From an uncultured Actinomycetota bacterium (lineage in GTDB: Bacteria; Actinomycetota; Actinomycetes; Actinomycetales; Micrococcaceae), in contig CAVUHH010000007.1 of assembly GCA_963741285.1 (NCBI GenBank), positions 106,483 through 138,482 of the forward strand: a stretch of 32,000 nt of DNA, read 5' to 3'. The notes beneath the pieces are model-generated. The model saw only the letters and a program-made list of their open reading frames with translations, ran no database searches and was not told where the DNA came from. Position 1 is the stretch's first letter. Each line of letters opens with the position of its first letter. Position numbers and translations under genes: made by a program. Shown piece by piece: positions 8,060 to 24,907 of this stretch.

Positions 8060-8363
8060 GCGGCCAGTTTGGCACGTGCGGCTTTGCTGATAAATGGTTC
8101 AGCCGGTCACGGCACTGGACGGCTCACAGGCCCTGCATCACAGGCAGCCGCTTCGCCAGATCGAGGAGCGCATGTTGTTTCCGGTGTCCAGCATGATGAT
8201 CCGGTAGAAACGGCGCATCGCGGAGTTCAGCCGGTCGAACTCACGGCTGCCGATGGTGGCGGCGAGGAGCAGCGTCGCCGTTCAGCCCCGAGGCTTCAAC
8301 AGGGCCCAGGAAAACAATCCCGGCGCACGGGTCCAGCGATGTGCAAGCACTGCATCAGGTGCT

Positions 8364-8392
8364 GTTGTCACTTTCCCCACCAAGTTGTCACT
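8364..8392. repeat. Perfect 9-bp direct repeat GTTGTCACT x2, 20-bp period
   Basis: GTTGTCACT occurs at 8364-8372 and 8384-8392, in non-coding, lower-GC sequence. Confidence 0.6.
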
Positions 8393-8577
8393 ATTCCCTC
8401 CCCAAGGGTTATGCCATTTGTTGTGCCACTAAATGCGGTGGACATACCCCGACATTGGAGCATGCCCACCATTTTTTAGAGATCCTGCCGACCTACCGTT
8501 GGACAACCAGCAGGTTCTGCCAGGCCTCCGAGTTCGCCACGGGACTATCGAGGCCGCACTGATGGCCATCGACAGAT

Positions 8578-8847
8578 TTAGGCGGCTATGGGAGAGACGT
8601 TGATGTTGAAGAACAGCGTTTCCCGCACGGGCAACGTTCCAAAACCTCCTCGTCGAGTGGCGTTCAGTGCGAGAGAGGTGTCGGTCGCGTAAACGTTTGC
8701 CCAGTTGGTCTCCAGGAACAAGGTCTCCGCGATTGCAACAACTCCACCGGGCGGCCTTCCAGTTCCTGAATTGTGAGTTCCTTCATGTAAATCACCCCCT
8801 TTCGAAGTCTCCCGCTCAGTCAACGCGGCACCCCGTCGCATCTTCAT
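8578..8847 (-). CDS. Hypothetical small protein; 5' end ambiguous (possible leader-peptide-like N-terminus in another frame)
   Basis: The 89-codon ORF ends at TAA 8578. A much better start signal (GGGGGTGA-N6-ATG at 8790, MKELTIQELEGRP) lies one frame off and would join the ORF (GGVVAIAETLFLETNW...) only through a 1-nt shift near 8750. No homolog is recognised. Confidence 0.3.
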   Translation of the reverse strand: MKMRRGAALTERETSKGGDLHEGTHNSGTGRPPGGVVAIAETLFLETNWANVYATDTSLALNATRRGGFGTLPVRETLFFNINVSPIAA

Positions 8848-9000
8848 AACTGCCGAGTTATTTTGCGTTGTTTTGGGAAACTATGGCGTGACAGTCTTTG
8901 ACTTGGGCGCCGAATAATCTATGCCTAGGATGGTTATACCGGGCAGTAATGTTCGTGGATTATTTGCGAATTGCAGACAAGGAAAGCAGGGCGCCCGCTC

Positions 9001-9204
9001 ATGGCGGACATTGAAGGCACGATGGTTATCCGCGCGTGGGCTGAGCCTGCACCAAACAACCGGATCCGCGCACGTCTCATTTCCAGCCGGCCCGGCCAGA
9101 GCGGGGAATTCGTGGAGGCTGCCGGCGATGCAGCGGAAGTCCTCCAGGCTGTCCAGCGCTGGCTCGATTCACTGCAACCGGAAGACACCACAGCCAACGC
9201 CTAG
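9001..9204 (+). CDS. Hypothetical small protein (67 aa)
   Basis: MADIEGTMVIRAWAEPAPNNRIRARLISSRPGQSGEFVEAAGDAAEVLQAVQRWLDSL has non-biased composition and sits upstream of the SARP gene on the same strand. Weak RBS. Confidence 0.4.
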   Translation: MADIEGTMVIRAWAEPAPNNRIRARLISSRPGQSGEFVEAAGDAAEVLQAVQRWLDSLQPEDTTANA

Positions 9205-9238
9205 TCCGGCGCACCGAAAAGCCCCACCATATATGCGG

Positions 9239-9281
9239 CCCTACCCCACTTGATCCCTCGCCCTACCCCAGTTACTAAAAT
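9239..9281 (+). promoter_or_regulatory. SARP-style direct repeats plus -10-like element upstream of the SARP gene
   Basis: The perfect 10-mer CCCTACCCCA occurs at 9239-9248 and 9261-9270 (22-bp period), followed 5 nt later by TAAAAT (9276-9281). SARP activators classically bind direct repeats with 11/22-bp periodicity just upstream of the -10. Confidence 0.4.
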
Positions 9282-9351
9282 GACTTGACATGATTGGGCC
9301 AAGTGCCACGATGGTAGCTGGAGGACGCGTGGATCCGGCCGCTTGAGAGGG

Positions 9352-10095
9352 ATGAGCATGACGGTTGCTCTCGCACAGGATTGGCACTTGAGTCTGCTGG
9401 GGGCTTGGCGGTTACGCTGCGGCAGCAACACAGTGACGGTGGCCAGCCGTGAGCAGCGGCTGATAGCCTGCGTGGGACTTCTAGGCTGCCGCCACCGGAG
9501 TTTTTTGGCCGGCCTCCTGTGGCCGAAAAGCAGCGAAACGCAGGCAGCGGGAAACCTCCGTACCACCGTCTGGTGCATCTCCCACGCTTTCCCTCACCTT
9601 CTCCATGCGGGGCCAGACACCCTGGAGCTGGACGAATCCGTCCGCGTCGACGTCGCAGCCCTGCAGCAGCACGTCGCCAGAATGCACGCGCAGCCTGAAG
9701 CACAGGTCCCGGACAGCTACCTGGACCACCTGAGCCGGGCCGAGCTGCTGCCCGGCTGGTATGACGACTGGGTGGTCTTCGAACAGGAGCGGCTCCGGCA
9801 AATGCGGCTCAGCGCCCTTGAGCTGATGGCACGGCAGCATCTGGTGGCCGGTGAACCGGGCAATGCCGTCATCGCGGCACTGTCGGCGGCAAGCATCGAA
9901 CCGCTCAGGGAATCGGCGCACCTCCTGCTGGTGCAGGCCCACCTTGCAGCCGGCAACAGGGCAGCTGCGGTCCGGGCCTACACGATGTTTGCCAGCAGGC
10001 TGGAAAATGAACTGGGCGTCCAGCCCTCAAGCCAGCTGAGCGGGCTTGTCTCGGCGTTCCGGCCGCAAGTCGGCCTGGTACCTGGCGGCATGTAG
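9352..10095 (+). CDS. SARP/AfsR-DnrI-RedD-type regulator (OmpR-like winged helix + BTAD domain)
   Basis: LSLLGAWRLRCGSNTVTVASREQRLIACVGLLG ... LLWPKSSETQAAGNLRTTVW (wHTH), then LLPGWYDDWVVFEQERLRQMRLSALE ... EPLRESAHLLLVQAHLAAGNRAAAVRAYTMFASRLENELGVQPS (BTAD). The start is ATG 9352 or 9358, after GAGAGGG. Confidence 0.75.
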   Translation: MSMTVALAQDWHLSLLGAWRLRCGSNTVTVASREQRLIACVGLLGCRHRSFLAGLLWPKSSETQAAGNLRTTVWCISHAFPHLLHAGPDTLELDESVRVDVAALQQHVARMHAQPEAQVPDSYLDHLSRAELLPGWYDDWVVFEQERLRQMRLSALELMARQHLVAGEPGNAVIAALSAASIEPLRESAHLLLVQAHLAAGNRAAAVRAYTMFASRLENELGVQPSSQLSGLVSAFRPQVGLVPGGM

Positions 10096-11166: not shown

Positions 11167-12327
11167 CTAGCCCCGCTGCTCGGGGCCGCCCTTCGGAACG
11201 GGCACTGACCAGCGCTCCTCGATGTGGCCGAAACGCCACACGCCCAGGGCAAGGAGCCAGGTGAAGATGAACAGCGCAACCGTGGTGTATCCGACGGCCG
11301 CGAGGTCCAGTCCGCCAATCACAGCCAGGGGCCCTGAGCGGATCCCGGCGCTGTCCACCAGGAGGGAAATCAGCTGCACAGAGCCGATGCCCAACGCTAC
11401 TGCCACGGACAAGCCAGTCACCACCACGTTGTAATAGATCCTGCGGATGGGCCGGGAAAGCGCCCACCGGTAGGCGAATGTCATGAAGCAGCCGTCGAGC
11501 GAGTCGAGCAGGCTCATGCCCGCCGCGAAGAGGACCGGCAGCGTGAGGATCGCGTACCACGGCAGCGCCGACGCAGCGGCTCCCGCGGCCAGGATGAGCA
11601 GGCTTACCTCCGTGGCAGTGTCAAACCCCAGGCCGAACAGCAGCCCCACCCCATACATCTGCCAAGGCTTGGTGATCAGGCGTGTGAACCTGCCGAAGAG
11701 CCGCGTCATCAGTCCGCCGGAGAACGGCTGGGTCTCCAAACCGGCGTCCTTGTTTTGGCTGGACCGCAGCCGCCGCGCCGATCGGAGTACTTCCAGGAGC
11801 ATCACCAGGTTCAGGGCACCAATGAGGTAGAGAAAGAGGCCCGAGACTGCCGTTCCGAAGACCTGCAGGCCAGCCTCGGTTTCGCCCGAAACCACTCCAC
11901 CCTGGTCCGACAGGCTTCGGATTCCGGCGGCCAGCAAAGCACACAGGCCAAAGACGATGCTCGAGTGGCCCAGGGAGAACCAGAAACCCACTGTCATGGG
12001 CCGGGCTCCCAACCGGGAGTGCCCGTCACCCGAAAGTTTCCGCGTGGTGTTATCGATGGCGGCGATGTGATCGGCGTCGAACGCGTGGCGGAGCCCCAAG
12101 GTATACGCGGCGACGCCCAGGCCAACACCGAAAACGCCGGACGAGCCCGCGGGAAGGTTTCCGGGTGCCACGACTGCCAGGAGCACACCCCAGCCCACTA
12201 CATGGAGCAGCAACACCACGGCTGCCATTCCTGCGATCGAGGACCGCTCCCGCCTGGTCAAAACGATTGCGGACCGACCTGTCGAGGCCTCGGGCTGCGT
12301 GCTGTTTTCAGCTTCCGGTTGCTTCAC
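11167..12327 (-). CDS. hoxN: NiCoT-family high-affinity nickel/cobalt permease (HoxN/HupN/NixA type)
   Basis: Carries the signature RHAFDADHIAAIDNTTRK (HX4DH), plus FSLGHSS and LGFDTATE. The GTG start at 12327 is preceded by GGAGG 7 nt upstream. It is divergent from hypA. Confidence 0.9.
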   Translation of the reverse strand: MKQPEAENSTQPEASTGRSAIVLTRRERSSIAGMAAVVLLLHVVGWGVLLAVVAPGNLPAGSSGVFGVGLGVAAYTLGLRHAFDADHIAAIDNTTRKLSGDGHSRLGARPMTVGFWFSLGHSSIVFGLCALLAAGIRSLSDQGGVVSGETEAGLQVFGTAVSGLFLYLIGALNLVMLLEVLRSARRLRSSQNKDAGLETQPFSGGLMTRLFGRFTRLITKPWQMYGVGLLFGLGFDTATEVSLLILAAGAAASALPWYAILTLPVLFAAGMSLLDSLDGCFMTFAYRWALSRPIRRIYYNVVVTGLSVAVALGIGSVQLISLLVDSAGIRSGPLAVIGGLDLAAVGYTTVALFIFTWLLALGVWRFGHIEERWSVPVPKGGPEQRG

Positions 12328-12466
12328 TTCCGAGCCTCCGGCTTCCGCGTCATTGCAGAATAATGAGACGACTATACGCCCATACTCGATGAACGTGCAG
12401 CTGTCAAATTTTTGGGTTGCGTTATGGCCGGGACGAGCCTATCTTGACAGAGAGGGGGCACAGCCG
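12328..12466. promoter_or_regulatory. Divergent hoxN / hypA-hydrogenase control region (sites not resolved)
   Basis: 139-bp AT-richer spacer between divergent starts. It must contain both promoters. I could not assign a regulator site. Confidence 0.3.
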
Positions 12467-12796
12467 ATGCACGAACTCTCGATCGTACAAAGCCTCATAG
12501 ACGCGGTTCTGGACCAAACCGGCAACCGTGCGGTTACCGGCGTCAACCTTCGGATCGGGCCGTTGTCAGGTGTGCTCCCGGATGCCCTCCGTTTCTGTTT
12601 TGACGTTGCCTCGGCGGGAACCACCCTGGCAGGGGCGCGGCTGCGGATCGACGAGCCGCAGGGACGGGGGCTGTGCCGCACGTGCGGCAACGACTTCGCT
12701 CTCACTGATATGTTCCTCCTCTGTCCCTGCGGCAGTGCCGACGTCCACGTGGTGACCGGACGCGAACTCCAGCTCGTTTCGGTGGAGGTGGCATAA
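12467..12796 (+). CDS. hypA: Hydrogenase nickel-insertion metallochaperone HypA
   Basis: MHELSIVQSLIDAVL is the N-terminal Ni-binding MHE motif, with zinc motifs CRTCG...CPCG. RBS is GAGGGGG. Confidence 0.9.
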   Translation: MHELSIVQSLIDAVLDQTGNRAVTGVNLRIGPLSGVLPDALRFCFDVASAGTTLAGARLRIDEPQGRGLCRTCGNDFALTDMFLLCPCGSADVHVVTGRELQLVSVEVA

Positions 12797-12799
12797 GCA

Positions 12800-13692
12800 A
12801 TGTGCGCAACATGCGGCTGCGGCGAGGACGCCACTCCCCGGGTCTATGCCCTCGATGTCCCCAGCGCGCAGGGGCATGGTCACCCCCACAATCACGGGCA
12901 CGACCACACGCACACCCACGATCACGGGCACGACCGGGCCACGCCCACGACCGGGCACGACCACGGCGCACCTGCCACGCGCCGGAGCTCATCCCGCTGG
13001 AGCAGAACCTGCTGGCCAAGAACGACCTCCTCGCCGAACGGAACCGCGGCTGGCTGGCGGGACGGAAAGTGCGGGCGCTGAACATGATGAGCTCGCCCGG
13101 CGCCGGGAAGACCACGCTCCTGGTGCGGACGCTCACGGAACTGGGAGACAGGCTGCAGGCCGGGGTCATCGAAGGGGACCAGGAAACCTCTCTCGACGCC
13201 GACCGGATCCAGGCCGCCGGGCGGCCCGTGGTGCAGATCAACACCGGAGCGGGCTGCCACCTCGACGCCGACATGCTCCGCCGCGGACTCGACGCGCTCG
13301 ATCCTCCGATGGGTTCAACCGTGTTCATCGAGAACGTGGGAAATCTCGTCTGCCCCGCCCTCTTCGACCTGGGCGAAGCAGCCAAAGTAGTAGTCGTCTC
13401 AGTGACGGAAGGTGATGACAAACCGCAGAAATACCCGCACATGTTCATCGCAGCTGACCTGGTGATCATCAACAAGTCGGACCTGCTCCCCTACGTCGAG
13501 TTCGACGTCGACGAATGCGTTCGCCGTATCCGTCACCTCAACGCCCACGCAGAATTCCTGGTCCTCTCAGCCACTACCGGCGACGGCGTTGCCGCCTGGT
13601 ATGACTGGCTGGACGGCGTTCCCTCCCGGACAGAGACCCGCGTAGGGTCTTCGACAGGGCCTCTGGAAGAGTCCCTGACAGACGCACACTGA
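12800..13692 (+). pseudogene. hypB: Hydrogenase nickel-incorporation GTPase HypB, frame-disrupted inside/after the His-rich tract as read
   Basis: The N-terminus MCATCGCGEDA plus HGHPHNHGHDHTHTHDHGHD is in the frame of ORF 12800-13081. The G-domain (ELIPLEQNLLAKNDLLAERNRGWL, P-loop SSPGAGKTTLL, ENVGNLVCPA, NKSDLL) is in the frame of ORF 12802-13692. The switch lies between about 12935 and 12990. Confidence 0.85.
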
Positions 13693-13723
13693 GCCCCCTC
13701 ACGGGCCGCGGAAAGAGGCAACG

Positions 13724-14782
13724 ATGCCTACCGAAACTTCCCTCAAGGCCGAAGAAACCCTGATTCACGTGCTCTGGATCAACGCAGGGCTGAGCTGCGA
13801 CGGCGATTCCGTCGCCCTGACAGCAGCCACCCAGCCCAGCGTGGAGGAAATCGCCCTCGGCGCCCTGCCTGGCCTGCCCCGCATCGCCATGCACTGGCCC
13901 CTGATCGATTTCGAGTGCGGCCCCCAGGAAGGGGCGGACGACTTCCTGGAGTGGTTCCGCAAAGCGGACCGCGGCGAGCTGGAGCCGTTCGTCCTGGTGG
14001 TGGAAGGGTCCATCCCGAATGAGAAACTGCACGACGCCGGGGGCTACTGGTGCGGGTTCGGCAACGACCTGGCCACGGGACAGCCGATAACCACCAGTGA
14101 ATGGCTGGACCGCCTGGCACCTAAGGCCACGGCCATCATCGCTGCCGGCACCTGTGCAACATACGGCGGCATCCATGCCATGGCGGGAAACCCCACCGGC
14201 GCCATGGGCGTTCCCGACTACCTGGGCTACGACTGGAAATCCAAGGCCGGCATCCCCATCGTCTGTGTTCCGGGCTGCCCCATCCAGCCGGACAATCTCT
14301 CCGAAACCATGACCTACCTCCTGTACCAGGCCACCGGACAGGCCCCGATGATTCCGCTGGATGATGCGCTGCGGCCCACGTGGCTGTTCGGGAAGACCGT
14401 CCATGAAGGCTGTGACCGCGCGGGCTACTACGAACAGGGCGACTTCGCCACGGAGTACGGCTCCCCCAAGTGCATCGTCAAGCTCGGATGCTGGGGCCCG
14501 GTGGTCAAGTGCAACGTGCCCAAGCGTGGCTGGATGAACGGGATCGGCGGCTGCCCCAACGTTGGCGGCATCTGCATCGGCTGCACCATGCCGGGCTTCC
14601 CGGACAAGTTCATGCCCTTTATGGACGAGCCACCCGGCGGCAAGCTCTCCACCAGCACCATCCGCCCCTACGGCGCCGCAATCAGGGCACTGCGCGGCAT
14701 CACCACCCACACGCTGGACCAGGAGCCCAAGTGGCGCCGGCCCGGACGCGAACTGCTGACCGGCGCACAGCGGACCTGGTAG
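13724..14782 (+). CDS. hhyS: [NiFe]-hydrogenase small subunit, group 1h (Hhy/Hof type)
   Basis: LIHVLWINAGLSCDGDS, AAGTCATYGGI, CVPGCP and the distal cluster motifs GCWGPVVKCNVPKRGW...CIGCTMPGFPDKF are present. There is no twin-arginine signal at the N-terminus, as expected for group 1h. RBS is GAAAGAGG. Confidence 0.92.
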   Translation: MPTETSLKAEETLIHVLWINAGLSCDGDSVALTAATQPSVEEIALGALPGLPRIAMHWPLIDFECGPQEGADDFLEWFRKADRGELEPFVLVVEGSIPNEKLHDAGGYWCGFGNDLATGQPITTSEWLDRLAPKATAIIAAGTCATYGGIHAMAGNPTGAMGVPDYLGYDWKSKAGIPIVCVPGCPIQPDNLSETMTYLLYQATGQAPMIPLDDALRPTWLFGKTVHEGCDRAGYYEQGDFATEYGSPKCIVKLGCWGPVVKCNVPKRGWMNGIGGCPNVGGICIGCTMPGFPDKFMPFMDEPPGGKLSTSTIRPYGAAIRALRGITTHTLDQEPKWRRPGRELLTGAQRTW

Positions 14783-14809
14783 TCCCCCCTTTCCAGACAG
14801 GTGAAGAAC

Positions 14810-16603
14810 ATGACCTCAACGATTCCTATGCCGTCCGGAAGCGGGACGGATAACAGCAACCTCGTGGAGATGGCCTGGGATCCCATCACCCGGATTGTGG
14901 GCAGCCTGGGCATCTACACCAAGATTGATTTCGCGAACAACCAGGTAGTGGAGTGCAAGAGCACGTCCTCGATCTTCCGCGGCTATTCCATTTTCATGAA
15001 GGGCAAGGACCCGCGGGACGCCCACTTCATCACCAGCCGCATCTGCGGGATCTGCGGCGACAACCACGCCACCTGTTCCTGCTACGCGCAAAACATGGCC
15101 TACGGCGTGAAGCCACCGAACCTGGGTGAATGGATCGTGAACCTGGGCGAGGCCGCGGAGTACATGTTCGACCACAACATCTTCCAGGAGAACCTGGTGG
15201 GCGTGGACTACTGCGAAAAGATGGTCTCCGAAACCAACCCCGGCGTCCTGGCCAAGGCTGAGAACACCCGGGCACCGCACGAGGGCGACCACGGCTACCG
15301 GACCATCGCCGACATCATGCGCTCACTGAACCCGTTCACCGGCGAGTTCTACCGCGAGGCGCTGCAGGTCAGCCGCGCCACCCGCGAGATGTTCTGCCTC
15401 ATGGAAGGCCGCCATGTGCATCCGTCCACGCTCTACCCCGGCGGGGTGGGGACCGTGGCCACCATCCAGCTCATGACCGACTACATCACCCGGCTGATGC
15501 GCTACGTGGAATTCATGAAGAAAGTCGTGCCCATGCATGACGACCTCTTCGACTTCTTCTACGAGGCGCTGCCCGGCTACGAGCAGGTGGGCCTGCGCCG
15601 GACGCTGCTGGGCTGCTGGGGCTCCCTCCAGGACCCTGACTACTGCAATTTCGAGTACAAGGACATGACCGAGTGGGGCCGCAAGATGTTCGTCACCCCG
15701 GGCGTGGTGGTGGACGGCAAGCTGGTCACCACGGACCTGGTCCGGATCAACCTGGGCCTGCGGATCATGCTGGGGTCCTCCTACTACGAGGACTGGGAAG
15801 ACCAGGAGATGTTTGTGACCCGCGATCCGCTGGGCAACCCGGTGGACCGCCGCCATCCCTGGAACCAGCACACCAATCCGCGGCCGCAGAAGAGGGACCT
15901 GAAGGAGAAGTACAGCTGGGTCATGTCACCGCGCTGGTTCGACGGCGAGAACAACCTTGCCCTGGACACCGGAGGCGGCCCGCTGGCGCGGCTCTGGGCC
16001 ACGGCCCTGGCCGGGCTGGTGGACATCGGCTACCTCAAGGCCACCGGCAGCAGCGTGCAGATCAACCTTCCCAAGACAGCGCTCAAAGGCCCCGTCACCT
16101 TTGAATGGAACATCCCGCAGTGGAGCAACACCCTGGAACGCAACCGGGCCCGCACCTACTTCCAGGCCTACGCGGCCGCAGCGGCCCTCCATTTCGCGGA
16201 GAAGGCGCTGGAGGAAATCCGGGCCGGCCGGACCAAGACCTGGGAGACGTTCACGGTTCCGGACGAAGCCATCAGCTGCGGCTTCACCGAAGCGGTCCGC
16301 GGCGTCCTGTCCCACCACATGGTGATCCGGGACGGCAAGATCGCGAACTACCACCCCTACCCGCCCACCCCCTGGAACGCCAGCCCCACTGACTCCTCCG
16401 GCACACCCGGCCCGTATGAGGACGCGGTTCAGGGCCAGCCGATCTTCGAGGAGAACGACCGCGAGCACTTCAAGGGGATCGACATCATGCGCACGGTCCG
16501 GAGCTTCGACCCGTGCCTGCCGTGCGGTGTCCATATGTACCTGGGCAACGGCCAGACCCTGGAACAGCTGCACTCGCCCACCCAGACCCTCACCGGAGAG
16601 TAA
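14810..16603 (+). CDS. hhyL: [NiFe]-hydrogenase large subunit, group 1h (Hhy/Hof type)
   Basis: The L1 motif TSRICGICGDNH and the L2 motif SFDPCLPCGVH are the group 1h (formerly group 5) signatures. The C-terminal extension MYLGNGQTLEQL... after the His is the expected protease substrate. An alternative start is GTG 14801. Confidence 0.95.
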   Translation: MTSTIPMPSGSGTDNSNLVEMAWDPITRIVGSLGIYTKIDFANNQVVECKSTSSIFRGYSIFMKGKDPRDAHFITSRICGICGDNHATCSCYAQNMAYGVKPPNLGEWIVNLGEAAEYMFDHNIFQENLVGVDYCEKMVSETNPGVLAKAENTRAPHEGDHGYRTIADIMRSLNPFTGEFYREALQVSRATREMFCLMEGRHVHPSTLYPGGVGTVATIQLMTDYITRLMRYVEFMKKVVPMHDDLFDFFYEALPGYEQVGLRRTLLGCWGSLQDPDYCNFEYKDMTEWGRKMFVTPGVVVDGKLVTTDLVRINLGLRIMLGSSYYEDWEDQEMFVTRDPLGNPVDRRHPWNQHTNPRPQKRDLKEKYSWVMSPRWFDGENNLALDTGGGPLARLWATALAGLVDIGYLKATGSSVQINLPKTALKGPVTFEWNIPQWSNTLERNRARTYFQAYAAAAALHFAEKALEEIRAGRTKTWETFTVPDEAISCGFTEAVRGVLSHHMVIRDGKIANYHPYPPTPWNASPTDSSGTPGPYEDAVQGQPIFEENDREHFKGIDIMRTVRSFDPCLPCGVHMYLGNGQTLEQLHSPTQTLTGE

Positions 16604-16609
16604 GCCGCC

Positions 16610-17527
16610 ATGCCCGGCGGGGAACGGCCGCTGCAGACCGGCGAGCGCATCAGTACGCTCCTCGACGCGCTCGGGGCCGGCGGCGCGGTTGCCCGCGGCC
16701 GTGCCGAAGACCTGGTCCGCCAGGTCACCGACATGTACGGCTCCGGGCTGGAACGGATCCTGGAAATCCTGGATGAGCGGGGAAAGCTCGACGACGGCAC
16801 GCTGGCGGCGCTGGCCGCCGACGAGCTCGTGTCCGGGCTGCTCATCATCCACGGCCTGCACCCCGAGTCGATGGCGACGAGGGTGGCGGGCGCCCTGGAC
16901 AGCGTCCGGCCATACCTTGGGTCCCATGGCGGAGACGTTGAACTGCTGGACATCAGCCCGGAGGGCGTGGTGCGGCTGAAGCTGCTCGGCACCTGCCAGG
17001 GCTGCCCGTCGTCGTCCGTTACGTTGAAATTTGCCGTCGAAGAGGCGATCGAAACGGCTGCCCCGGAGGTCACCGCCATCGAAGTGGTGGAAGCCGAAAA
17101 GCACGCCGCCACCCCCGCGTTCATCCCCGTGGACTCCCTGCTGGTCAGGATGAACCACACAGACCAGCAGGAGGGGTCCTGGGAGCCGGTACCGGGCGTC
17201 GCCGATCTGGAACCGGGCGACGTGGCCGGGTTCCAGGTGGGCGGCTATTCGCTCCTGGCCTGCCGGACCGGGCAGGACGTCTATGCGTACCGGGATTTCT
17301 GCCCGCGCTGCGAAGGCTCCATGGCGGGCGCCGTGCTGCAGCGCGCCCTGGCTGCCCCTGCCGGCGGCGGCCTGCTGCGCTGTCCCACCTGCCGCGCACA
17401 CTTCGACGTCCGCCAGGCCGGCTCCTGCTTGGAGGACCGAAGCCTGCATCTGGATCCGCTCCCACTGCTCGTACGCGGTGGCGTGATGTCCGTTGCCGTG
17501 CCGGTTGCCGCAGGCAAGGGCGGCTGA
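16610..17527 (+). CDS. NifU-like domain fused to a Rieske-fold-like Cys4 domain (HhyE-type putative Fe-S protein)
   Basis: The central VRPYLGSHGGDVELLDI...LLGTCQGCPSSSVTLKFAVEEAI is a NifU C-terminal domain. The C-terminal YAYRDFCPRCEGS...LRCPTCRAHFDV has CxxC...CxxC where a Rieske domain has CxH...CxxH. It starts 6 nt after the hhyL stop. Confidence 0.75.
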   Translation: MPGGERPLQTGERISTLLDALGAGGAVARGRAEDLVRQVTDMYGSGLERILEILDERGKLDDGTLAALAADELVSGLLIIHGLHPESMATRVAGALDSVRPYLGSHGGDVELLDISPEGVVRLKLLGTCQGCPSSSVTLKFAVEEAIETAAPEVTAIEVVEAEKHAATPAFIPVDSLLVRMNHTDQQEGSWEPVPGVADLEPGDVAGFQVGGYSLLACRTGQDVYAYRDFCPRCEGSMAGAVLQRALAAPAGGGLLRCPTCRAHFDVRQAGSCLEDRSLHLDPLPLLVRGGVMSVAVPVAAGKGG

Positions 17528-17528
17528 G

Positions 17529-18200
17529 ATGGAATCGCCCGGCCTGCCCGTAGCGCTGCTGCGACGGATCGCCGCCGCCCCGCCGGCCGCTCCCGCCGGC
17601 GAGCGCTGCGAAATGTGCGGGGAGCCCATCGCCTCCGAACACCAGCACGTCGTGGACCTGGACAGCCATGCCATGATGTGCACCTGCCGGCCCTGCTACC
17701 TCCTCTTTACGGACAGCAATGCCCACCTGAGGTACCGGTCCGTGCCGGACCGGTACCTGTCCTTCCCCGATTTTGAGCTGGGCCCGGGCCAGTGGGACGA
17801 GCTGGAGATTCCCGTGGGACTGGCGTTCTTCTTCCGCAGTTCCAGGATGGAGCGGACGGTGGCGTTCTATCCCGGCCCTGCCGGTGCCACCGAATCCGAA
17901 CTGCCGCTGGACGCCTGGGATGCCGTGATGGCGCGGAATCCGGCCCTGTCCATAGCGGCCCCGGACACCGAGGCCCTCCTGATCCGGGGGCCCGGCCAGG
18001 AACGCCCCCAGGCCGACTGCCACCTTGTCCCCGTGGACGCCTGTTATGAACTGGTGGGACACCTGCGGCGCCTGTGGCGGGGTTTCGACGGCGGCCAGGA
18101 GGCCCGCGACCAGCTCACCTCCTTCTTCGCAAAGATCAGCAGCCGCAGCACCCCGGTCCACGAAACCACCCGGCAATCAACGTCCGGAGGCCTGCCGTGA
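17529..18200 (+). CDS. Conserved hydrogenase-cluster protein of unknown function (DUF5947-like, Cys-rich N-terminus)
   Basis: The ATG lies 1 nt after the preceding TGA. It carries the motif CEMCGEPIASEHQHVVDLDSHAMMCTCRPCYLLF. The family name is from memory and unverified. Confidence 0.65.
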   Translation: MESPGLPVALLRRIAAAPPAAPAGERCEMCGEPIASEHQHVVDLDSHAMMCTCRPCYLLFTDSNAHLRYRSVPDRYLSFPDFELGPGQWDELEIPVGLAFFFRSSRMERTVAFYPGPAGATESELPLDAWDAVMARNPALSIAAPDTEALLIRGPGQERPQADCHLVPVDACYELVGHLRRLWRGFDGGQEARDQLTSFFAKISSRSTPVHETTRQSTSGGLP

Positions 18201-18879
18201 TCGCCCTGGCCTTCGACGTCCTGGACATCCAACCGGAACCGTATGCGGCAGCGCCCCAGCTCACCGCGACGCTGCGGGTGACCGAGTCCACCGGGGCCGC
18301 AGTACACGCCATCGCCCTGCGCTGCCAGGTCCGGATCCTGCCCCAGCGCCGCGGCTACACACCCGAGGAAGAGTCCGGTTTGCTGGACCTCTTCGGCGAG
18401 CGCGGCCGCTGGCCCACCACCCTGAAGTCCTTCCTCTGGCTGCAATGCAGCACCATGGTCCAGGGCTTCACCGGCCAAACCGAGGTTCGGCTCCCGCTGC
18501 CCTGCACTTTTGACTTCGACGTTTCCGCCGCCAAGTACCTGCAGTCCCTGCGTGACGGTTTGGTCCCGCTGGAACTGCTGTTCTCCGGCACGGTTTTCAC
18601 CAGGGGTGAGGCAGGCTTCGGCGTGGAGCAGGTGCCTTGGGACCTCGAAGCCTCCTACCGGCTGCCGGTCGACGCATGGCGCCGGCTGATGGACCAGTAC
18701 TTCCCCCACACCGGCTGGCTGCGCCTGGACCGGGACGTGCTCGCAGCCCTGCTGCATTACAAGGCGGCCCGGGGCCTGACCTCCTGGGATGCCACCGTGG
18801 AGAGCCTGCTGGCCACGCCGCGGCGGTGGCCCCTGCGGCCCTGTCAGGAAGTTCGCTGTCAGGAGACCCGCTGCCATGA
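18197..18879 (+). CDS. Conserved hydrogenase-cluster protein of unknown function (DUF6084-like); 3' end probably frame-shifted
   Basis: The GTG at 18197 overlaps the upstream TGA (GTGA). As read, the frame runs on to 19132, 257 nt into the next gene. A 1-nt shift near 18811-18825 would end it at TGA 18877-18879, forming an ATGA overlap with the next start. Confidence 0.55.
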
Positions 18880-20282
18880 GCATGAGCCTGAGCCTCGCCC
18901 GCGCCGTGGCGGATGCCGTCCTGTACGAGGGCTACCTGCTCTACCCGTACCGCGCGTCCTCGCAGAAGAACCAGGCCCGGTGGCAGTTTGGCATCCTTGG
19001 CCCGCCAGGCGCCGCCGCTTCCGGCTCCGGCGAGGAAGCGGACATGTTCGCCGACTGCCTGCTCACCCCCGGCCCGAAGGCTGCCGTCGAAATTCATCTG
19101 CGTTTCCTGCAGCTCCAGGGGCGGTCGGCTGAGAAAGCGGACGACGACGGAGGGTTCACGGCGGTGGATGAGCTCACGGTCGGTGCCGCCCGCTGGCTGA
19201 GCTGGGACGAGGCGGTGGAGCGGGAAGTCACGCTGGGGCCGATCGCTGTGGCCGGGCTCAGCGGGCAGCCGACGGTTCTGCCGGTGGAGGTTCCCGGCGG
19301 CGAGGACACCGAGGAACTGCGCGACGCATCGGGGCGGCTGGCTGGGAGGCTGGTCCGCCGTCGTCGGCCGCTTCATGCTGAGGTGGGGCTGGCAGCGGCG
19401 TCAGCCGCAGGTGCCTTGGTGAGACTGCGGGTCGGCGTAGAAAATGTCGGGGTTGTTGAGACGGCCGCGAACGCAGGGGCGGGCGGTGCGGCTGGCTGGA
19501 GCAGGCAGGATGCGATCGCCGAATCCTTTATCGGCACGCACCTGCTCCTGAGCGTTCAGGACGCAGATTTCCTCTCCCTGTTGGAGCCACCACCCAACGC
19601 GGCCGCCGCGGCGGCCGCCTGCGGGCAGCACCGGTGCTGGCCCGTTTTGGCCGGTCCGGAGGGGCAGTCGGATGTGCTGCTGGTTTCCCCGATCATTTTG
19701 TACGACCACCCCGCCGTTGCCCCCGAAAGCTCGGTGGCACTGTACGACTCCACCGAAATCGACGAGATCCTGACGCTGCGCGTGCTGACCCTTACCGACG
19801 AGGAAAAGGCCGAAGCCCGCGCCACCGATCCACGGGCGGCTGCCATTATCGACCGGTGCGAGGCCATGTCCCCCGAAGAGCTGCAGCAACTGCATGGCAT
19901 CCTGCGCAATCCCCATGCCATGGACATTCCAGAACTCCATGAAGGACGCGGCGACCCGCAAGATGCGTGGTGGACGCCCGAAGCCGAAGCCCTGGTCCAG
20001 CCCCACCTGGATGCCGTGCTGATCAACGGGGTTCCGGTGGCCCGGGGCAGCCGCGTCAGGGTCAATCCGAGCCGGCGCGCCGATGCCCAGGACCTGTTCT
20101 TCGCCGGGCAGACGGGCCGCGTTACCAACGTCCACTTCGACGTTGACGGCAGCACCCATGTTGGCCTCGTCCTCGAGCAGGACCCGGCCGCAGACCTCCA
20201 CGAGGGCTACGGCAGGTCCTTCTATTACTCACCCGAAGAGCTCGAACCCCTGGGTCCGGATGGAAAGGAAGGCCCGCCATGA
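18876..20282 (+). CDS. Conserved hydrogenase-cluster protein of unknown function (468 aa)
   Basis: Starting from ATG 18876 (MSMSLSLARAVADAVLYEGYLLYPYRASSQKNQARWQFGILGP). The composition is balanced and the ORF is intact. No domain is recognised. Confidence 0.65.
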   Translation: MSMSLSLARAVADAVLYEGYLLYPYRASSQKNQARWQFGILGPPGAAASGSGEEADMFADCLLTPGPKAAVEIHLRFLQLQGRSAEKADDDGGFTAVDELTVGAARWLSWDEAVEREVTLGPIAVAGLSGQPTVLPVEVPGGEDTEELRDASGRLAGRLVRRRRPLHAEVGLAAASAAGALVRLRVGVENVGVVETAANAGAGGAAGWSRQDAIAESFIGTHLLLSVQDADFLSLLEPPPNAAAAAAACGQHRCWPVLAGPEGQSDVLLVSPIILYDHPAVAPESSVALYDSTEIDEILTLRVLTLTDEEKAEARATDPRAAAIIDRCEAMSPEELQQLHGILRNPHAMDIPELHEGRGDPQDAWWTPEAEALVQPHLDAVLINGVPVARGSRVRVNPSRRADAQDLFFAGQTGRVTNVHFDVDGSTHVGLVLEQDPAADLHEGYGRSFYYSPEELEPLGPDGKEGPP

Positions 20283-20398
20283 GAATCATAGGAATGGCCA
20301 CCGTAGCGTTGCTGGCAGGGTTGGCACTCGGCGCCATCTACGTTGGGATCCGGTCAGTTCCGGACATCCAGCGTTATCTGAAGGCACGGCGGATGTGA
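20279..20398 (+). CDS. 39-aa single-pass membrane micro-protein (not in the ORF track)
   Basis: ATG 20279 overlaps the TGA of the preceding gene (ATGA). It translates by hand to MRIIGMATVALLAGLALGAIYVGIRSVPDIQRYLKARRM, one hydrophobic helix plus a basic tail. It ends 7 nt before the protease gene. Confidence 0.5.
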   Translation: MRIIGMATVALLAGLALGAIYVGIRSVPDIQRYLKARRM

Positions 20399-20405
20399 CC
20401 CCGGG

Positions 20406-20906
20406 ATGACTGTTCTGGTTGCAGGCGTAGGCAACATGTTCCTGCGCGATGACGGTTTTGGGCCGGAGGTGGCCCGCCGGCTGGCTTCGGACGGACGGCT
20501 TCCGGCCGGCGTGGACGTAGTGGATTACGGCATCCGCGGGATGCACCTCGCGTACGACCTCCTTGCCGGTGTGGACGTGCTGGTGCTGGTGGACGCCGTG
20601 CCGCCGGGCCCCGGGACAGAACGCGATGAGTCCCGGCCGTCAGCTCCAGGCACCCTCCGGGTGCTCCGGATACACAACGAGGATCTCGACGGCGGCGCCT
20701 CCCTGGACCCCCACGGCATGGACCCTGCCGCCGTCCTGGGCAGGCTCCGGACACTGGGCGGCGAGGTTCCCGTGACGTACGTGGTGGGCTGCGTTCCGGC
20801 TGACCTCACCGAGGGCGTGGGCCTGACTCCCCCGGTGGCCGCAGCTTTGCCCGGGGCGGTTGCCGCCGTCGTCGATCTCCTCAGCCAGCACACCTCCAGA
20901 ACCTAA
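20406..20906 (+). CDS. hupD: Hydrogenase maturation endopeptidase (HupD/HyaD/HybD family)
   Basis: MTVLVAGVGNMFLRDDGFGPEVARRL ... VVDYGIRGMHLAYDL ... LDPHGMDP are the conserved metal-ligand Asp/Asp/His contexts of this protease family. Confidence 0.85.
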   Translation: MTVLVAGVGNMFLRDDGFGPEVARRLASDGRLPAGVDVVDYGIRGMHLAYDLLAGVDVLVLVDAVPPGPGTERDESRPSAPGTLRVLRIHNEDLDGGASLDPHGMDPAAVLGRLRTLGGEVPVTYVVGCVPADLTEGVGLTPPVAAALPGAVAAVVDLLSQHTSRT

Positions 20907-20916
20907 GGCGGACCAC

Positions 20917-21183
20917 ATGTGCCTCGGAATCCCCGGCCGGGTCATCGGCCCCATTGATGGCTACGGCGATCAGCTCGCCCTGGTGGACGTGGCCGGCGTA
21001 CAGCGGAAGATCAACATCGGGCTCCTGGACGAGGGACCGCTGCCGCCGGGCAGCTGGGTCCTGATCCATATGGGCTTCGCCCTCGAGCGCGTGGATCCGG
21101 CGGGTGCGGAACGGGCGATGAGCGGCCTGGAACTGATGGGCCAGCCGCGGCAATCCGACGACCCCCACGCCGGCGCCGGCTGA
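20917..21183 (+). CDS. hypC: Hydrogenase assembly chaperone HypC/HupF family
   Basis: Starts MCLGIPGRVI with the essential N-terminal Cys2. 88 aa. Confidence 0.9.
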   Translation: MCLGIPGRVIGPIDGYGDQLALVDVAGVQRKINIGLLDEGPLPPGSWVLIHMGFALERVDPAGAERAMSGLELMGQPRQSDDPHAGAG

Positions 21184-21221
21184 CCACCACCATCAAGCAT
21201 TACCGGAGCAAGGAGAACGCC

Positions 21222-21605
21222 ATGACACCGATGAATCCGTCCGAGCCGACCGGCTCTGAACCACGCGACACTGGGCCCCGCGATCCCGAACCAAACGGCG
21301 GGGAGCAGGGAACCTCGCCGGGCACCGCCCGCGCGTGGGGCAGCGAACCGCCGCTGAAAGAGCCCGCGCAGCCGGGTGCTGATGAGACACCCGAGGACGC
21401 GGCCATGGCTCCGGACGGCGTCGGCGAGAGCACCACCAGGCGTGGCGAGGACGTCGTCAAGGAGGAAGGCAAAGAGGCCGGCCGCGAAGACACCGGCACC
21501 GACGCAGGCCCGGTGGAGCGTCCCACCGGTGAATCCTCTCCCCGCGATGCGACTGGCGTCGAGACTCCGGAGGACCCCGATTCCGCGGCTCCACAGTCAC
21601 CGTAG
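21222..21605 (+). CDS. Acidic, Pro/Gly/Glu/Thr-rich, probably intrinsically disordered protein (127 aa)
   Basis: A strong RBS (AAGGAG) lies 7 nt before ATG 21222. The sequence is low-complexity (PEDPDSAAPQSP-type). No fold or family is recognised. Confidence 0.45.
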   Translation: MTPMNPSEPTGSEPRDTGPRDPEPNGGEQGTSPGTARAWGSEPPLKEPAQPGADETPEDAAMAPDGVGESTTRRGEDVVKEEGKEAGREDTGTDAGPVERPTGESSPRDATGVETPEDPDSAAPQSP

Positions 21606-21683
21606 GCCCAGGTTCCACGGTGGTGAGGGACCCAGCGCTTCAGGGCTTGGCGGACCAGCCCTTGTTGTTCGAGGACTTATCGC

Positions 21684-22451
21684 TCAAGGGCGATGGCTGC
21701 GCCGCGATGTTCCACGCCGCATGTTGGCGATCCTGAGGTGCCTGCCGGTAAAGAGTTTCAACTGCTGCAACTGGTGGGGTGTCAGCCGGTCACAGACCCA
21801 GTCCCAGTGCAGCGACACCACGTCACCCGCTGCGAGCCCGGCAATGAAGCCGGTTCCGTTGACTGCATACTTGGCGGTTTCCACCACGGGTTCGCCCACG
21901 GCCAGGGAAGTCCCGTCCCATGTCAGGGGACGGGACTTGACCACGGCTTCATCGCCCGTAATGGCCAGGACTTCGCCCCACCGGATCCGGCAGCGGTCCA
22001 GGACGTTCAGCGCCGTGGCGTAGCGGCGGTCATCACGCAGCAGCCCCAGCCAGGGATAGATTTCGAAGACGTGGAAGCTGTGGTGCGGGACGCCGCCCGC
22101 CAGGACGCCTTCCACGAGGTGCGGAAACTGCCGGCCGGTGCGGGCACGGAACCGGTCTTCCATCGAGTTGCCCATCATGCTGATGCCTACGGTGTCCAGG
22201 AGGCTGTTTCCCACCCAGTAGGCCTCCACCACGCGGGCGTCCAGCGGGTCGTGGATGCCGTGGGAACCGGCAATGAGTTCCAGGTAGGGCCAGGCTCCGG
22301 CAAAGCCCTTCGCGAGTTCGCGCAGGCCCTGGTCGGTGACGCCGGACTGGCCGTAGTGCAGCAGCGCGTCACTGTCGGGAGGGCCGCAGCTGCCTCGGGA
22401 ATTGGGCGGGTACGCGTACCGGACAAACAACTGGGCACCATCGACAACCAT
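21684..22451 (-). CDS. Conserved hypothetical protein (DUF6390-like)
   Basis: 255-aa intact ORF with balanced composition. The N-terminal FVRYAYPPNSRGSCGP resembles what I recall of DUF6390 (unverified). It is convergent with the hydrogenase operon. Confidence 0.55.
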   Translation of the reverse strand: MVVDGAQLFVRYAYPPNSRGSCGPPDSDALLHYGQSGVTDQGLRELAKGFAGAWPYLELIAGSHGIHDPLDARVVEAYWVGNSLLDTVGISMMGNSMEDRFRARTGRQFPHLVEGVLAGGVPHHSFHVFEIYPWLGLLRDDRRYATALNVLDRCRIRWGEVLAITGDEAVVKSRPLTWDGTSLAVGEPVVETAKYAVNGTGFIAGLAAGDVVSLHWDWVCDRLTPHQLQQLKLFTGRHLRIANMRRGTSRRSHRP

Positions 22452-22603: not shown

Positions 22604-23758
22604 ATGGCATCCACTGATCTGAACCGCCGCGCCGCCCTACAACTTCTGGTGGCGGGAGGCTCCGCAGCCCTGCTGGCAGGATGCGCCGGCACCCCTGGTT
22701 CGCCGCCGTCGTCGGGCCTTGCCACGAACGGCGCGAACGGCGGCAGCGGCGCGATCAGCGTCACCGATCAGCGTGGCAAAACCCTGACCTTTGCCCGGCC
22801 GGTGACGCGGGTGGTGACCATCCCCATGCCGGCGGCGTCGTTGCTGGTGGCCGTGGACCGGACCGCGGACCACCTCGCGGCCATGCACAACGCCTCCTGG
22901 GTGGCCATGCGCGACGGGATTATGGGCACCATCTTCCCCAAGGCCCTGGAGCTGCCGCACGAGATCGCCACCCAGGACTTCACGGCCAATGTGGAGAGCG
23001 TCCGTGCCCTGGACCCGGACGTGGTGATCCAGTGGTCCGACGCGCAGCTCATCGACCCGCTGGAAAAGGCCGGCCTGAACGTCATCGGGCTGACCAACAG
23101 GGGCAAGCAGGAGGATGTGGACGCGTGGGTGGCCATGTTCGCCGCCATGCTGGGAAAGCCCGAACGTGCCGTGGATATCAGGACCCGGAGCGATATGGAA
23201 CTGGCCGTGGTCAAGGATCTGGCAGCCGGCAGGGCCTCAACCGGGCCCAGCATCCTGTACTTCAACCGCTTCACCGGTGGCCTGAAGGTGGCCGCGGCCA
23301 ACAGCTACAACGACTTCTACATCAAGCTGGTGGGTGGCACGAATCCCGCCACCGGGGACGATCCGCTGAAGGGGTCGGGGATGGTGGGCCTGGACGTGGA
23401 GCAGGTGCTCCGCTGGGATCCGGAGATCATCCTGCTGGGGAATTTCGACAACGCCATGCCGCAGGACCTCTACTCAGACCCTGTCTGGCAGACCGTGTCC
23501 GCGGTCAGGAACCGGCGTGTCTACAAGGTGCCGCTGGGTGGGTACCGGTGGGATCCTCCCGGGCAGGAATCACCGCTGATGTGGCACTGGCTGAGCGATA
23601 TCGCGTTCCCCCAGCAGCAGTCCCTCCTCAGGAACAAGGTGGTGGAGTACTTCGATTTCCTGTACAGCCACAAACCCTCCGCGGCCGAACTGGACAAAAT
23701 CCTGTGGACCACCGCCAACGCCGACTCTGACCACTACCGGCAGTTCAATGCTGCATGA
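22604..23758 (+). CDS. ABC transporter substrate-binding lipoprotein, FecB/FhuD/BtuF (cluster A-2) type
   Basis: Has a Tat-like RRAALQLL and the lipobox LLAGC. The body resembles iron-siderophore/cobalamin-type binding proteins (VVTIPMPAASLLVAVD..., WDPEIILLGN, RRVYKVP). Confidence 0.8.
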   Translation: MASTDLNRRAALQLLVAGGSAALLAGCAGTPGSPPSSGLATNGANGGSGAISVTDQRGKTLTFARPVTRVVTIPMPAASLLVAVDRTADHLAAMHNASWVAMRDGIMGTIFPKALELPHEIATQDFTANVESVRALDPDVVIQWSDAQLIDPLEKAGLNVIGLTNRGKQEDVDAWVAMFAAMLGKPERAVDIRTRSDMELAVVKDLAAGRASTGPSILYFNRFTGGLKVAAANSYNDFYIKLVGGTNPATGDDPLKGSGMVGLDVEQVLRWDPEIILLGNFDNAMPQDLYSDPVWQTVSAVRNRRVYKVPLGGYRWDPPGQESPLMWHWLSDIAFPQQQSLLRNKVVEYFDFLYSHKPSAAELDKILWTTANADSDHYRQFNAA

Positions 23759-23819: not shown

Positions 23820-24907
23820 ATGCAGGCGCGGCCGGGAACGTTGACGACGGCGTCCGGCCGCGTGGGGAGCCCGTCGGCGGCGGGCGGCGGGGACCGTCAG
23901 CCCTCAAGCCGATCGCCATCAGCGCAGTCTTCCTGGTCACCGTGACCCTGGTGGCCCTGGCCGTGGGCCGGTACAACGTTCCGCTCTGGCACGTGGTGCA
24001 GATCCTCGTGGGGCAGGTCGTCCCGGTCCCTGTCGAGGCAACCGCCACGGAGGAAAATGTGGTGCTGCTGGTCAGGCTGCCCCGTGTGCTGCTGGCACTG
24101 CTGGTGGGCGGCGGCCTGGCCATCGGCGGCGCGGCGCTGCAGGCCATCTTCCACAATCCGCTGGTCAGTCCGGACATCATCGGCGTGTCTGCGGGTGCGT
24201 CCTTCGGCGGGGCGCTGGCGCTCCTTCTGGGCCTGGGGACGTTCGCGCTCATCACGAGTTCCTTCGCGTTCGGCCTGGTTGCCCTGGCCACGCTGTTCCT
24301 GATCACATCCGGGCGCGGCGGGACTCCCCTGCTGATGATTGTGCTGGGCGGCGTGGTCACGGGCTCGTTCTTCTCCGCGCTGGTTGCCCTGGTCACCTAC
24401 ATCGCGGATCCGAACACCACGTTGCCGGCCATCGTGTTCTGGCTCCTGGGCAGCGTGGCCACTGCCACGTTCGGCAAGGTGGTGGTGGCACTGATTCCCG
24501 TTGTGGGCGGCGCACTGGTGCTCCTGGCGCTGCGCTGGCGCATCAACGTGCTCTCCCTGGGCGACGACGACGCTGCCGCCCTCGGGGTCCGGCCCCGGCC
24601 GCTGCGCTGGGTGGTGCTGGTTTCGGTGGCCCTGATCGTGGCCGGGGCCGTCGCGGTCAGCGGCGCGGTCAGCTGGGTGGGGCTGGTGATCCCCCACCTG
24701 GCGAGGATGTGGGTGGGTCCGGACCACCGCGTGCTGCTGCCGGTCTCCTTCCTCCTGGGGGGCGCCTACATCATGCTGGTGGACACTGTGGCACGGACAG
24801 CGACGGCGGGCGAGATCCCGCTCGGCGTGCTGACGGCGCTCATCGGGGCGCCTGTCTTTTTTGTCCTGCTGCGCCGGAACCGGGACAGGATCTGGGAAAG
24901 TGCTTGA
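23820..24907 (+). CDS. FecCD-family ABC permease; 5' end unresolved (probable frameshift near 23865-23895)
   Basis: The intact ORF 23942-24907 has FecCD hallmarks (LLVGGGLAIGGAALQAIFHNPLVSPDIIGVS, IPLGVLTALIGAPVFFVLL). However, TM1 (LKPIAISAVFLVTVTLVALAVG) extends upstream of the GTG at 23942, and there is no in-frame start back to the stop at 23777. ATG 23820 (MQARPGTL...) in another frame could join it through a G-run indel. Confidence 0.8.

Follow-up and report, generated by a model that had tools for sequence, protein, structure and literature searches.

A group 1h [NiFe]-hydrogenase island without HypD, HypE and HypF in Micrococcaceae

Can a [NiFe]-hydrogenase be made without HypD, HypE and HypF? 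The question is raised by a hydrogenase locus in a 32,000-nucleotide stretch of DNA, referred to below as the window, from an uncultured actinobacterium of the Micrococcaceae (assembly GCA_963741285.1, contig CAVUHH010000007.1, positions 106,483 to 138,482, forward strand). HypF and HypE produce cyanide from carbamoyl phosphate and HypD acts as an Fe-S scaffold; jointly they build the Fe(CN)2CO unit. All six Hyp proteins are used by every characterised [NiFe]-hydrogenase (PMC10657181). The locus encodes a group 1h enzyme together with HypA, HypB, HypC and a maturation endopeptidase, but HypD, HypE and HypF are genuinely absent, throughout the sampled family and repeatedly in other lineages. 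The enzyme is of a known kind, but its genetic setting is without precedent. On the sequence evidence it is probable that the enzyme is made and active, with an Fe(CN)2CO unit that would come from a route without HypD, HypE and HypF, and that the cluster is the island of the organism's sole [NiFe]-hydrogenase.

Searches for HypD, HypE and HypF

The window has a G+C content of ~67% and lies mid-contig on a contig of 179 kb. The assembly comprises 4.45 Mb in 25 contigs, with an estimated completeness of 87.4%. Homologues of the window's proteins bear the names Pseudarthrobacter and Arthrobacter, the nearest named record being Pseudarthrobacter sulfonivorans; the host is a soil Pseudarthrobacter. 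Genes were identified by Pfam and NCBIfam profile searches, and motifs were read from the translations. Below, G numbers denote genomes (G000 being this assembly) and L numbers denote loci.

An earlier note, made from the DNA letters alone, had reported no hypD, hypE or hypF between 11.1 and 22.5 kb. Profile searches bear this out, with no Pfam or NCBIfam match to any of the three in the 32-kb window. The explanations it had offered do not survive. As the window lies mid-contig, the genes are not merely outside it: none is found in the surrounding 179-kb contig, so the locus organisation is not the ordinary one that hypDEF immediately outside the window would have made it. Neither dependence on hyp genes elsewhere in the genome nor a simple rearrangement of the cluster fits the searches of the whole assembly and of family genomes, all of which are negative. 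HypD models (PF01924, TIGR00075) have no match in G000 or its relatives. The HypE model TIGR02124 reaches at best 24 bits in G000 against a cut-off of 252, and the HypF model TIGR00143 ~24 bits against 466, in the N-terminal acylphosphatase domain only. Searches of all of G000 by tblastn, a check independent of the pre-filter in the family search, took their HypF, HypD and HypE queries from a 1h locus that has all three genes; the best E-values were, respectively, 0.001 (51 residues of the acylphosphatase domain), 0.64 and 0.70. As a control, the same three queries match five HypDEF-positive 1h loci with E ≤ 1e-76 and ~50% identity, always within the cluster.

The incompleteness of G000 does not explain this result, because congeners with the hydrogenase also lack HypD. 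The hydrogenase occurs in six further genomes of the genus, one of which, G018, is closed; their large subunits are 93–96% identical to that of the window. HypD is not found in any of the six, and HypE and HypF are not found in the five tested (G018, G002, G003, G011, G024). The closed single-contig genomes G018 and G102 (99–100% complete) and hydrogenase-negative congeners also yield no HypDEF. Across the family, none of 301 sampled Micrococcaceae genomes (38 genera, closed genomes included) yields HypD, and none of 151 yields HypE or HypF. A 1h large subunit is present in 18 of the 301, from six of the 38 genera. A control with a 300-genome sample of the phylum shows that the searches are sensitive: of the 301 genomes searched, 152 yield HypD, typically at ~1e-150, and among the 36 with a 1h large subunit it turns up in 33.

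HypDEF-less 1h loci also occur in at least five other actinobacterial lineages. HypD is not found genome-wide in Actinocrinis puniceicyclus, G453 (of another class), G355, Lentzea tibetensis, a Lapillicoccus metagenome-assembled genome (MAG) and three further MAGs, all of which carry a hydrogenase, hypC and the gene for a DUF6390 protein. HypE and HypF are likewise not found in these genomes where tested. The large subunit of G355 is merely 43% identical to that of the window and belongs to another group. In a tree of large subunits the Micrococcaceae clade is sister to a HypDEF-positive clade of the L035 type (support 100/99), while the HypDEF-less Actinocrinis and G453 branch elsewhere; HypDEF was therefore lost two or more times.

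A further apparent case, G459, was discarded as a HypDEF-less lineage, as an intact hypE stands at a contig edge and the absence reflects an assembly gap. Beyond this hypE (G459:C177:681-2128), the opposite strand carries two short HypF-like fragments, perhaps a hypF in decay in what is a 1h-positive genome. Two distant HypD-less loci carry a small MIase-like gene (PF02426) and an unannotated gene of 141–151 residues beside the 1h cluster (L017 970-1263, L018 14302-14577).

Relative to the canonical HypABCDEF system, HypA, HypB, HypC and the endopeptidase are here too, canonical in sequence and under purifying selection, whereas the HypD/E/F part that builds Fe(CN)2CO is not found in the genome or the sampled family. 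A literature search returned no paper on HypDEF-less 1h hydrogenases of Actinobacteria, or on DUF6390, DUF5947 or DUF6893 in that setting.

The enzyme and selection on its cluster

The enzyme itself is as the earlier note had read it. The large subunit, HhyL (14801..16603, + strand; Pfam NiFeSe_Hases), carries the group 1h motifs L1 (RICGICGDNH; FITSRICGICGDNH, residues 76–89, of the type xxRICGICxxxH, TSRICGICGDNH) and L2 (DPCLPCGVH, here SFDPCLPCGVH; VRSFDPCLPCGVH at 567–579), the latter followed by a 21-residue tail and identical in the 1h sequences of the phylum. The small subunit, HhyS (13724..14782, + strand; Pfam Oxidored_q6 and NiFe_hyd_SSU_C), begins MPTETSLKAEETLIHVLWINAG (MPTETSLKAEETLIHVLW), with no RR at the N-terminus and no RRxF or twin-arginine motif; it lacks a twin-arginine translocation (Tat) signal, as the earlier note had said. 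Among PDB chains, HhyL scores 1065 bits against 5aa5_C, the actinobacterial-type hydrogenase of Ralstonia eutropha, and 158 bits against the next chain. Of 300 other genomes sampled from the phylum, 36 have large subunits 64–86% identical to it; in the tree it falls among such 1h sequences, well away from an outgroup of 43% identity. It is also the sole [NiFe] large subunit detected in G000, with one match.

The next gene, hhyE (16610..17527, + strand), encodes a putative iron-sulfur partner. HhyE is required for Hhy activity in M. smegmatis, and the family is defined by a NifU-like domain and two C-terminal CxxC motifs (PMC6883350). Its counterpart here has the NifU domain (Pfam 5e-22), weak Rieske-like matches and C-terminal CPRC and CPTC motifs. 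The L1 and L2 motifs, the Tat-less small subunit, the 5AA5 score, the HhyE-type partner and the branching inside 1h together place the hydrogenase, by its sequence, in group 1h (Hhy-type), as a cytosolic, Tat-less enzyme predicted to be of the high-affinity, O2-insensitive type. It shares subunits, L1 and L2, a Tat-less HhyS and HhyE with the Hhy of Mycobacterium smegmatis (MSMEG_2718-2722 plus hyp genes) and with Ralstonia HofKG (PDB 5AA5). Elsewhere in the phylum, the large-subunit matches of G430, G498 and G485 are each interrupted by one in-frame TGA (identities of 64% in one case and 37–38% in two), which could be a selenocysteine codon, a mark of pseudogenes or a sequencing error.

The genes for late maturation flank the subunits. 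Upstream on the + strand lie hypA (12467..12796; Pfam HypA 3.3e-29), encoding a nickel metallochaperone, and hypB (12800..13692; Pfam cobW/HypB domain), encoding a nickel GTPase with an N-terminal MCATCGCG site (CxxCGC) and a His-rich tract. Downstream on the same strand, a hydrogenase maturation endopeptidase of the HupD/HycI family is encoded at 20406..20906 (Pfam HycI; TIGR00072 110 bits, cut-off 47), followed by hypC (20917..21183; Pfam HupF_HypC 4e-20, TIGR00074 over cut-off), an iron chaperone gene whose product begins MCLGIPG. On the − strand, hoxN (11167..12327; Pfam NicO 2.7e-77, 260 bits) encodes a NiCoT-family nickel/cobalt permease with the signature RHAFDADH (HX4DH, second transmembrane segment). 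Coordinates and strands confirm the gene order reported earlier, with hoxN divergent from hypA-hypB-hhyS-hhyL and the protease and hypC downstream. The NiCoT permease had been described as dedicated to the locus. Its gene is confirmed, yet does not belong to the locus throughout: tblastn finds no match to hoxN at L015 or L016, the otherwise syntenic loci of G002 and G003. The permease is thus an optional add-on, and the ABC importer described below may be the constant nickel route.

Between hhyE and the protease lie four accessory genes, all on the + strand. The first two encode 1h-specific accessory proteins: a Cys-rich DUF5947 protein with a CxxC...CxC...C pattern (17529..18200; Pfam 2.2e-73), of uncertain start as its reading frame opens at 17493, and a DUF6084 protein (18197..18879; Pfam 1.9e-92) whose orthologues are 210–220 residues long. 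A conserved protein of 468 residues (18876..20282) belongs to no Pfam or NCBIfam family. It has at least 8000 homologues; of those listed, any that a source names bear no other name than 'hypothetical protein'. The AlphaFold 2 (AF2) model, with a predicted local distance difference test score (pLDDT) of 73.5, shows a β-rich core and a small C-terminal barrel, in which Foldseek finds no HypD-, HypE- or HypF-like fold. Coupled to this gene by ATGA is that of DUF6893, a 39-residue membrane micro-protein (20279..20398; 39.8 bits, cut-off 24.6), with ω, the ratio of non-synonymous to synonymous substitution rates, of 0.19–0.33; it is also annotated in L017 and L018. The block HhyE, DUF5947, DUF6084, 468-residue protein, DUF6893, protease and HypC recurs in all 1h loci examined, regardless of whether HypDEF is there too. 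It can be dismissed as a cryptic HypDEF, since it is universal in HypDEF-positive loci and the 468-residue protein has no Hyp-like fold; group 1h clusters and the window simply have DUF5947, DUF6084, the 468-residue protein, DUF6893, the protease and HypC in common. In two HypDEF-positive loci, the match to the 468-residue protein contains one in-frame stop (L038:8950-10317, L041:15401-16714).

Selection was estimated against four orthologous loci (synonymous divergence, dS, 0.6–1.9). ω is 0.011–0.054 for hhyS, whose product is 93–98% identical to its orthologues, and 0.036–0.059 for hhyL. The maturation genes give 0.11–0.18 (hypC), 0.16–0.29 (protease) and 0.09–0.22 (hypA and hypB, hypA alone being at 0.11–0.22), and the accessory genes 0.06–0.31. 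These values indicate that the cluster is not a relic but is under strong purifying selection, with its late-maturation genes maintained. Nor does the active site set the large subunit apart from those of HypDEF-positive relatives. When seven HypDEF-less large subunits are compared with seven HypDEF-positive ones, a single column of 573 ungapped columns separates them, and the L1 and L2 metal-binding motifs, all four cysteines and the cleavable tail are unchanged. On these grounds a standard NiFe(CN)2CO site is expected, and the enzyme looks built for one. The separating column is residue 281 of HhyL (window ~15641-15643), with F or Y in HypDEF-less and H or V in HypDEF-positive sequences; it may be due to chance.

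DUF6390, the metal importer and the rival explanations

The earlier note had placed a gene for an acidic protein in the position after hypC, the usual hypD slot. This gene (21222..21605, + strand) is real: it encodes an acidic, low-complexity protein of 127 residues with no family match, and shows ω of 0.12–0.20 against L014 and L015. It is missing in L016 and L034, where the gap between hypC and the DUF6390 gene is 57–148 nt, and is confined to the closest relatives. Such a lineage-restricted gene is excluded as a conserved filler of the slot, and the conserved occupant is instead the DUF6390 gene (21684..22451, − strand; Pfam DUF6390 2e-90). All the HypDEF-less 1h loci examined carry DUF6390. 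In Actinocrinis, L018 and Lentzea the gene occupies the hypD slot, downstream of hypC and co-oriented with it, its start overlapping or abutting hypC.

The 120 best-scoring homologues of DUF6390, from several actinobacterial orders, show 62–95% identity. They share 56 invariant columns, including Cys22, His124, Cys154 and Cys220, with His123 and His127 nearly invariant. In the AF2 model (pLDDT 88) an N-terminal helical domain without a solved relative, with Cys22 in a YAYPPNxxGxCGP motif and a PHHxFH motif, is followed by an oligonucleotide/oligosaccharide-binding (OB) domain. The top Foldseek match of the latter is the HypC of Thermococcus kodakarensis (PDB 2Z1C; E 0.016, probability 1.0, template-modelling score (TMt) 0.60). 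Alignment of DUF6390 with HypC by hhalign gives a probability of 65% over 31 columns, and the Pfam HupF_HypC model has no match. With HypC it shares the OB fold, a GDxVxxH-type segment and an invariant Cys immediately ahead of the first strand, comparable to Cys2 of HypC. The Cys of HypC must be N-terminal, however, whereas Cys154 of DUF6390 is internal, behind a helical domain of 154 residues. The models thus make a modest case that the C-terminal domain is HypC-like.

Beyond DUF6390 lies a FecCD-type (type II) ABC importer on the + strand, comprising a lipoprotein binding protein (22604-23758), a permease (23942-24907) and an ATPase (24861-25643), with Pfam Peripla_BP_2, FecCD and ABC_tran domains. 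Among the best 80 DUF6390 loci, an importer stands within 3 kb in 65 (56 FecCD-type, 8 FbpABC-type and 1 ZnuABC-type), and none does in the other 15. None of these 80 loci has hypD, hypE or hypF within 10 kb. The adjacency also extends to the distant locus L018. As the importers come from three unrelated families, a functional link with DUF6390 is favoured over mere shared ancestry. One locus of Cryobacterium frigoriphilum (L019, 7875-13130) has DUF6390 beside a ZnuA/ABC-3-type importer in a genome without HypD. No hydrogenase gene is present within the 18.7 kb fetched for it, the contig ending ~7.9 kb upstream of DUF6390.

The closest PDB relative of the binding protein is 4ovk (158 bits, an unnamed binding protein), and the nickel-binding CeuE of H. 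pylori (4ino) is also related. A vitamin B12 system was considered and rejected, with no cobalamin or other riboswitch found in the window. The importer has the domains and the lipoprotein signal of type II metal-chelate systems such as the H. pylori CeuE/FecDE nickel system (4INO/4INP), FhuD and MolA, and differs from the CeuE/FecDE type in being inherited with a hydrogenase island and paired with DUF6390. Its substrate is likely a metal chelate, such as one of nickel or iron. Plain nickel or iron supply is the economical reading, given the resemblance to Ni- and Fe-chelate binders and the lack of a riboswitch.

If the enzyme is active, late maturation would proceed as usual, with HypC delivering the iron unit, HypA and HypB inserting nickel and the protease cleaving the tail. 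The Fe(CN)2CO unit would come from a route bypassing HypD, HypE and HypF, for which DUF6390 and the neighbouring metal importer are the best positional candidate, at a scaffold or iron-supply step. The chances are about even that a second, undescribed Fe(CN)2CO route exists in many soil Actinobacteria (Micrococcaceae, Actinocrinis, Lentzea, Lapillicoccus-like), possibly via DUF6390 and its importer and perhaps running in parallel in HypDEF-positive clusters that have DUF6390.

Several points weigh against an active enzyme supplied in this way. No gene for cyanide or CO synthesis is identified. HydG was not found in the five HypDEF-less genomes searched, which excludes a HydG-type radical S-adenosylmethionine source of CO and cyanide. 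The 468-residue protein, DUF5947 and DUF6084 co-occur with HypDEF elsewhere, and so are no substitutes. Nor is DUF6390 a proven substitute: at least seven of the sampled genomes have both it and HypD, and in G515 the two genes adjoin. The family-level absence comes from a pre-filtered search, although its positive controls passed. The G000 assembly, 87% complete, is prone to indels; its four frame breaks within the 32 kb include those that make hypB and DUF6084 read as broken. Lastly, no report of H2 oxidation by Arthrobacter, Pseudarthrobacter or other Micrococcaceae was found in the literature.

In the strongest rival, DUF6390 and the ABC importer form a module that specifically stands in for HypD as the scaffold, and perhaps for further steps. 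An iron species taken up by the importer would be bound by DUF6390, with ligands from both of its domains (the Cys of the HypC-like one, the Cys and His of the novel one), and then be handed on to HypC and HhyL. This would account for the presence of DUF6390 in all the HypDEF-less 1h loci examined, its hypD-slot position in Actinocrinis, L018 and Lentzea, its HypC-like C-terminal domain, the invariant Cys154, Cys22 and His124, the adjoining importers of three unrelated families and the inheritance of the importer with the island. The DUF6390 tree does not split by HypD status, but its branches are short in most HypD-less genomes and long in HypD-positive, importer-less ones. Against it, a strict replacement of HypD is ruled out by the coexistence with HypD and by the lack of profile similarity (hhalign probability 0.04%), and the pair of DUF6390 and an Fbp-type importer is also found in the HypD-positive genomes G527 and G445. 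Further, such a module offers no cyanide or CO chemistry, plain metal supply is simpler for a binding protein of the Ni-/Fe-chelate type, and 15 of the 80 loci have no importer nearby. We therefore regard it as unlikely.

It is more doubtful still that the proteins are kept for a role that needs no Fe(CN)2CO, or that the enzyme is catalytically dead, so that the missing HypDEF would be without consequence. The silence of the literature on H2 oxidation in the family fits this explanation, as does the need of all characterised [NiFe]-hydrogenases for six Hyp proteins; the island, found in only 18 of the 301 family genomes, is also dispensable. However, purifying selection extends to hypA, hypB, hypC and the endopeptidase, which have no known role besides metal-centre insertion. 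The four metal-binding cysteines, the motifs and the cleavable tail are unchanged, with one column in 573 differing, and the state has persisted over dS ~1 and in six genera. That hypD, hypE and hypF are present but missed, whether in unassembled regions, on unsequenced plasmids or through divergence, is very improbable: the incomplete, indel-prone assembly and the contig-edge hypE of G459 lend it some colour, but closed genomes and the counts across 38 genera are negative, the three proteins are among the best conserved of the pathway (~1e-150 across the phylum, ~50% identity between distant 1h loci), and canonical 1h loci hold them inside the cluster, which is fully assembled here. An active enzyme with Fe(CN)2CO from a route without HypD, HypE and HypF thus remains the favoured reading.

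The island, its neighbours and what it means

In three closed hydrogenase-negative congeners DedA directly adjoins ppc, which reveals the empty site. The island therefore spans ~14.9 kb (10.8–25.7 kb), from hoxN through the ABC ATPase. Since the importer is absent at the empty site it is part of the island, and the functional unit reaches 25.7 kb, past the right boundary of 22.5 kb drawn in the earlier note. The island is vertically maintained. Its nearest HypDEF-positive counterpart, L035, has a large subunit of 85% identity and the same succession of genes, each one matched, from hypA through DUF6390. L035 carries a divergent hypF-hypC'-hypD-hypE operon beside hypA, where the window has hoxN; in the window, DUF6390 is inverted and the FecCD-type importer is appended. 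A promoter and terminator scan of the island gave counts below the shuffled expectation.

The genes around the island were also considered as places for hypDEF. Downstream, reading frames at 22604, 23942 and 26153 fit by size but are the ABC binding protein, the permease and the antisense of ppc. Upstream, the region encodes an Lhr helicase, Nei, a GntR-aminotransferase, ArsR, RluA, a Macro protein, a SARP and DedA. Next to the hydrogenase island, a second segment also varies: it lies at 8060-10095 and has a lower G+C content (57% at 8–9 kb) and a SARP/BTAD regulator gene. The BTAD protein has no tblastn counterpart at the corresponding site in three congeners, in which Macro or RluA adjoins DedA.

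Four genes of the window are frame-broken. In hypB the break lies in the His-codon tract (~12930-12990): the frame with MCATCGCG and the His tract opens at 12800, and the GTPase domain continues in another frame to 13692. Three-frame translation and comparison find hypB intact in three relatives (L014-L016). DUF6084 starts at 18197, but in a frame that misses its expected stop (TGA at 18877-18879, overlapping the ATG of the following gene, as it does in relatives) and stays open to 19132; the break presumably lies near the 3' end (~18800-18879). The ppc gene (25705-28500, − strand; PEP carboxylase) falls into two frames because a GGGG run at 26561 contains one G too many; five congeners have it intact (934–963 residues). 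The nei/fpg-like glycosylase gene (1929-3456) misses a G after GGGCCC at 2335 relative to two congeners. As relatives carry intact copies, the four breaks are probably indel-type sequencing or assembly errors.

The need for HypCDEF is treated as universal for [NiFe]-hydrogenases and constrains the heterologous expression of O2-insensitive high-affinity enzymes. Here a whole family and several unrelated lineages keep a selected 1h hydrogenase with HypA, HypB, HypC and the protease, without HypDEF. The locus is carried by Arthrobacter globiformis NBRC 12137 and by Pseudarthrobacter sulfonivorans, and the assumption that HypDEF is required is directly testable in such culturable and non-pathogenic strains. 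If the enzymes are active, there would be an unknown route to metal-bound cyanide and CO, and the minimal gene set for an air-stable hydrogenase would be smaller than assumed, or at least different. If they are inactive, metagenomic surveys that use hhyL as a marker of atmospheric H2 oxidation would overcount these abundant soil genera.

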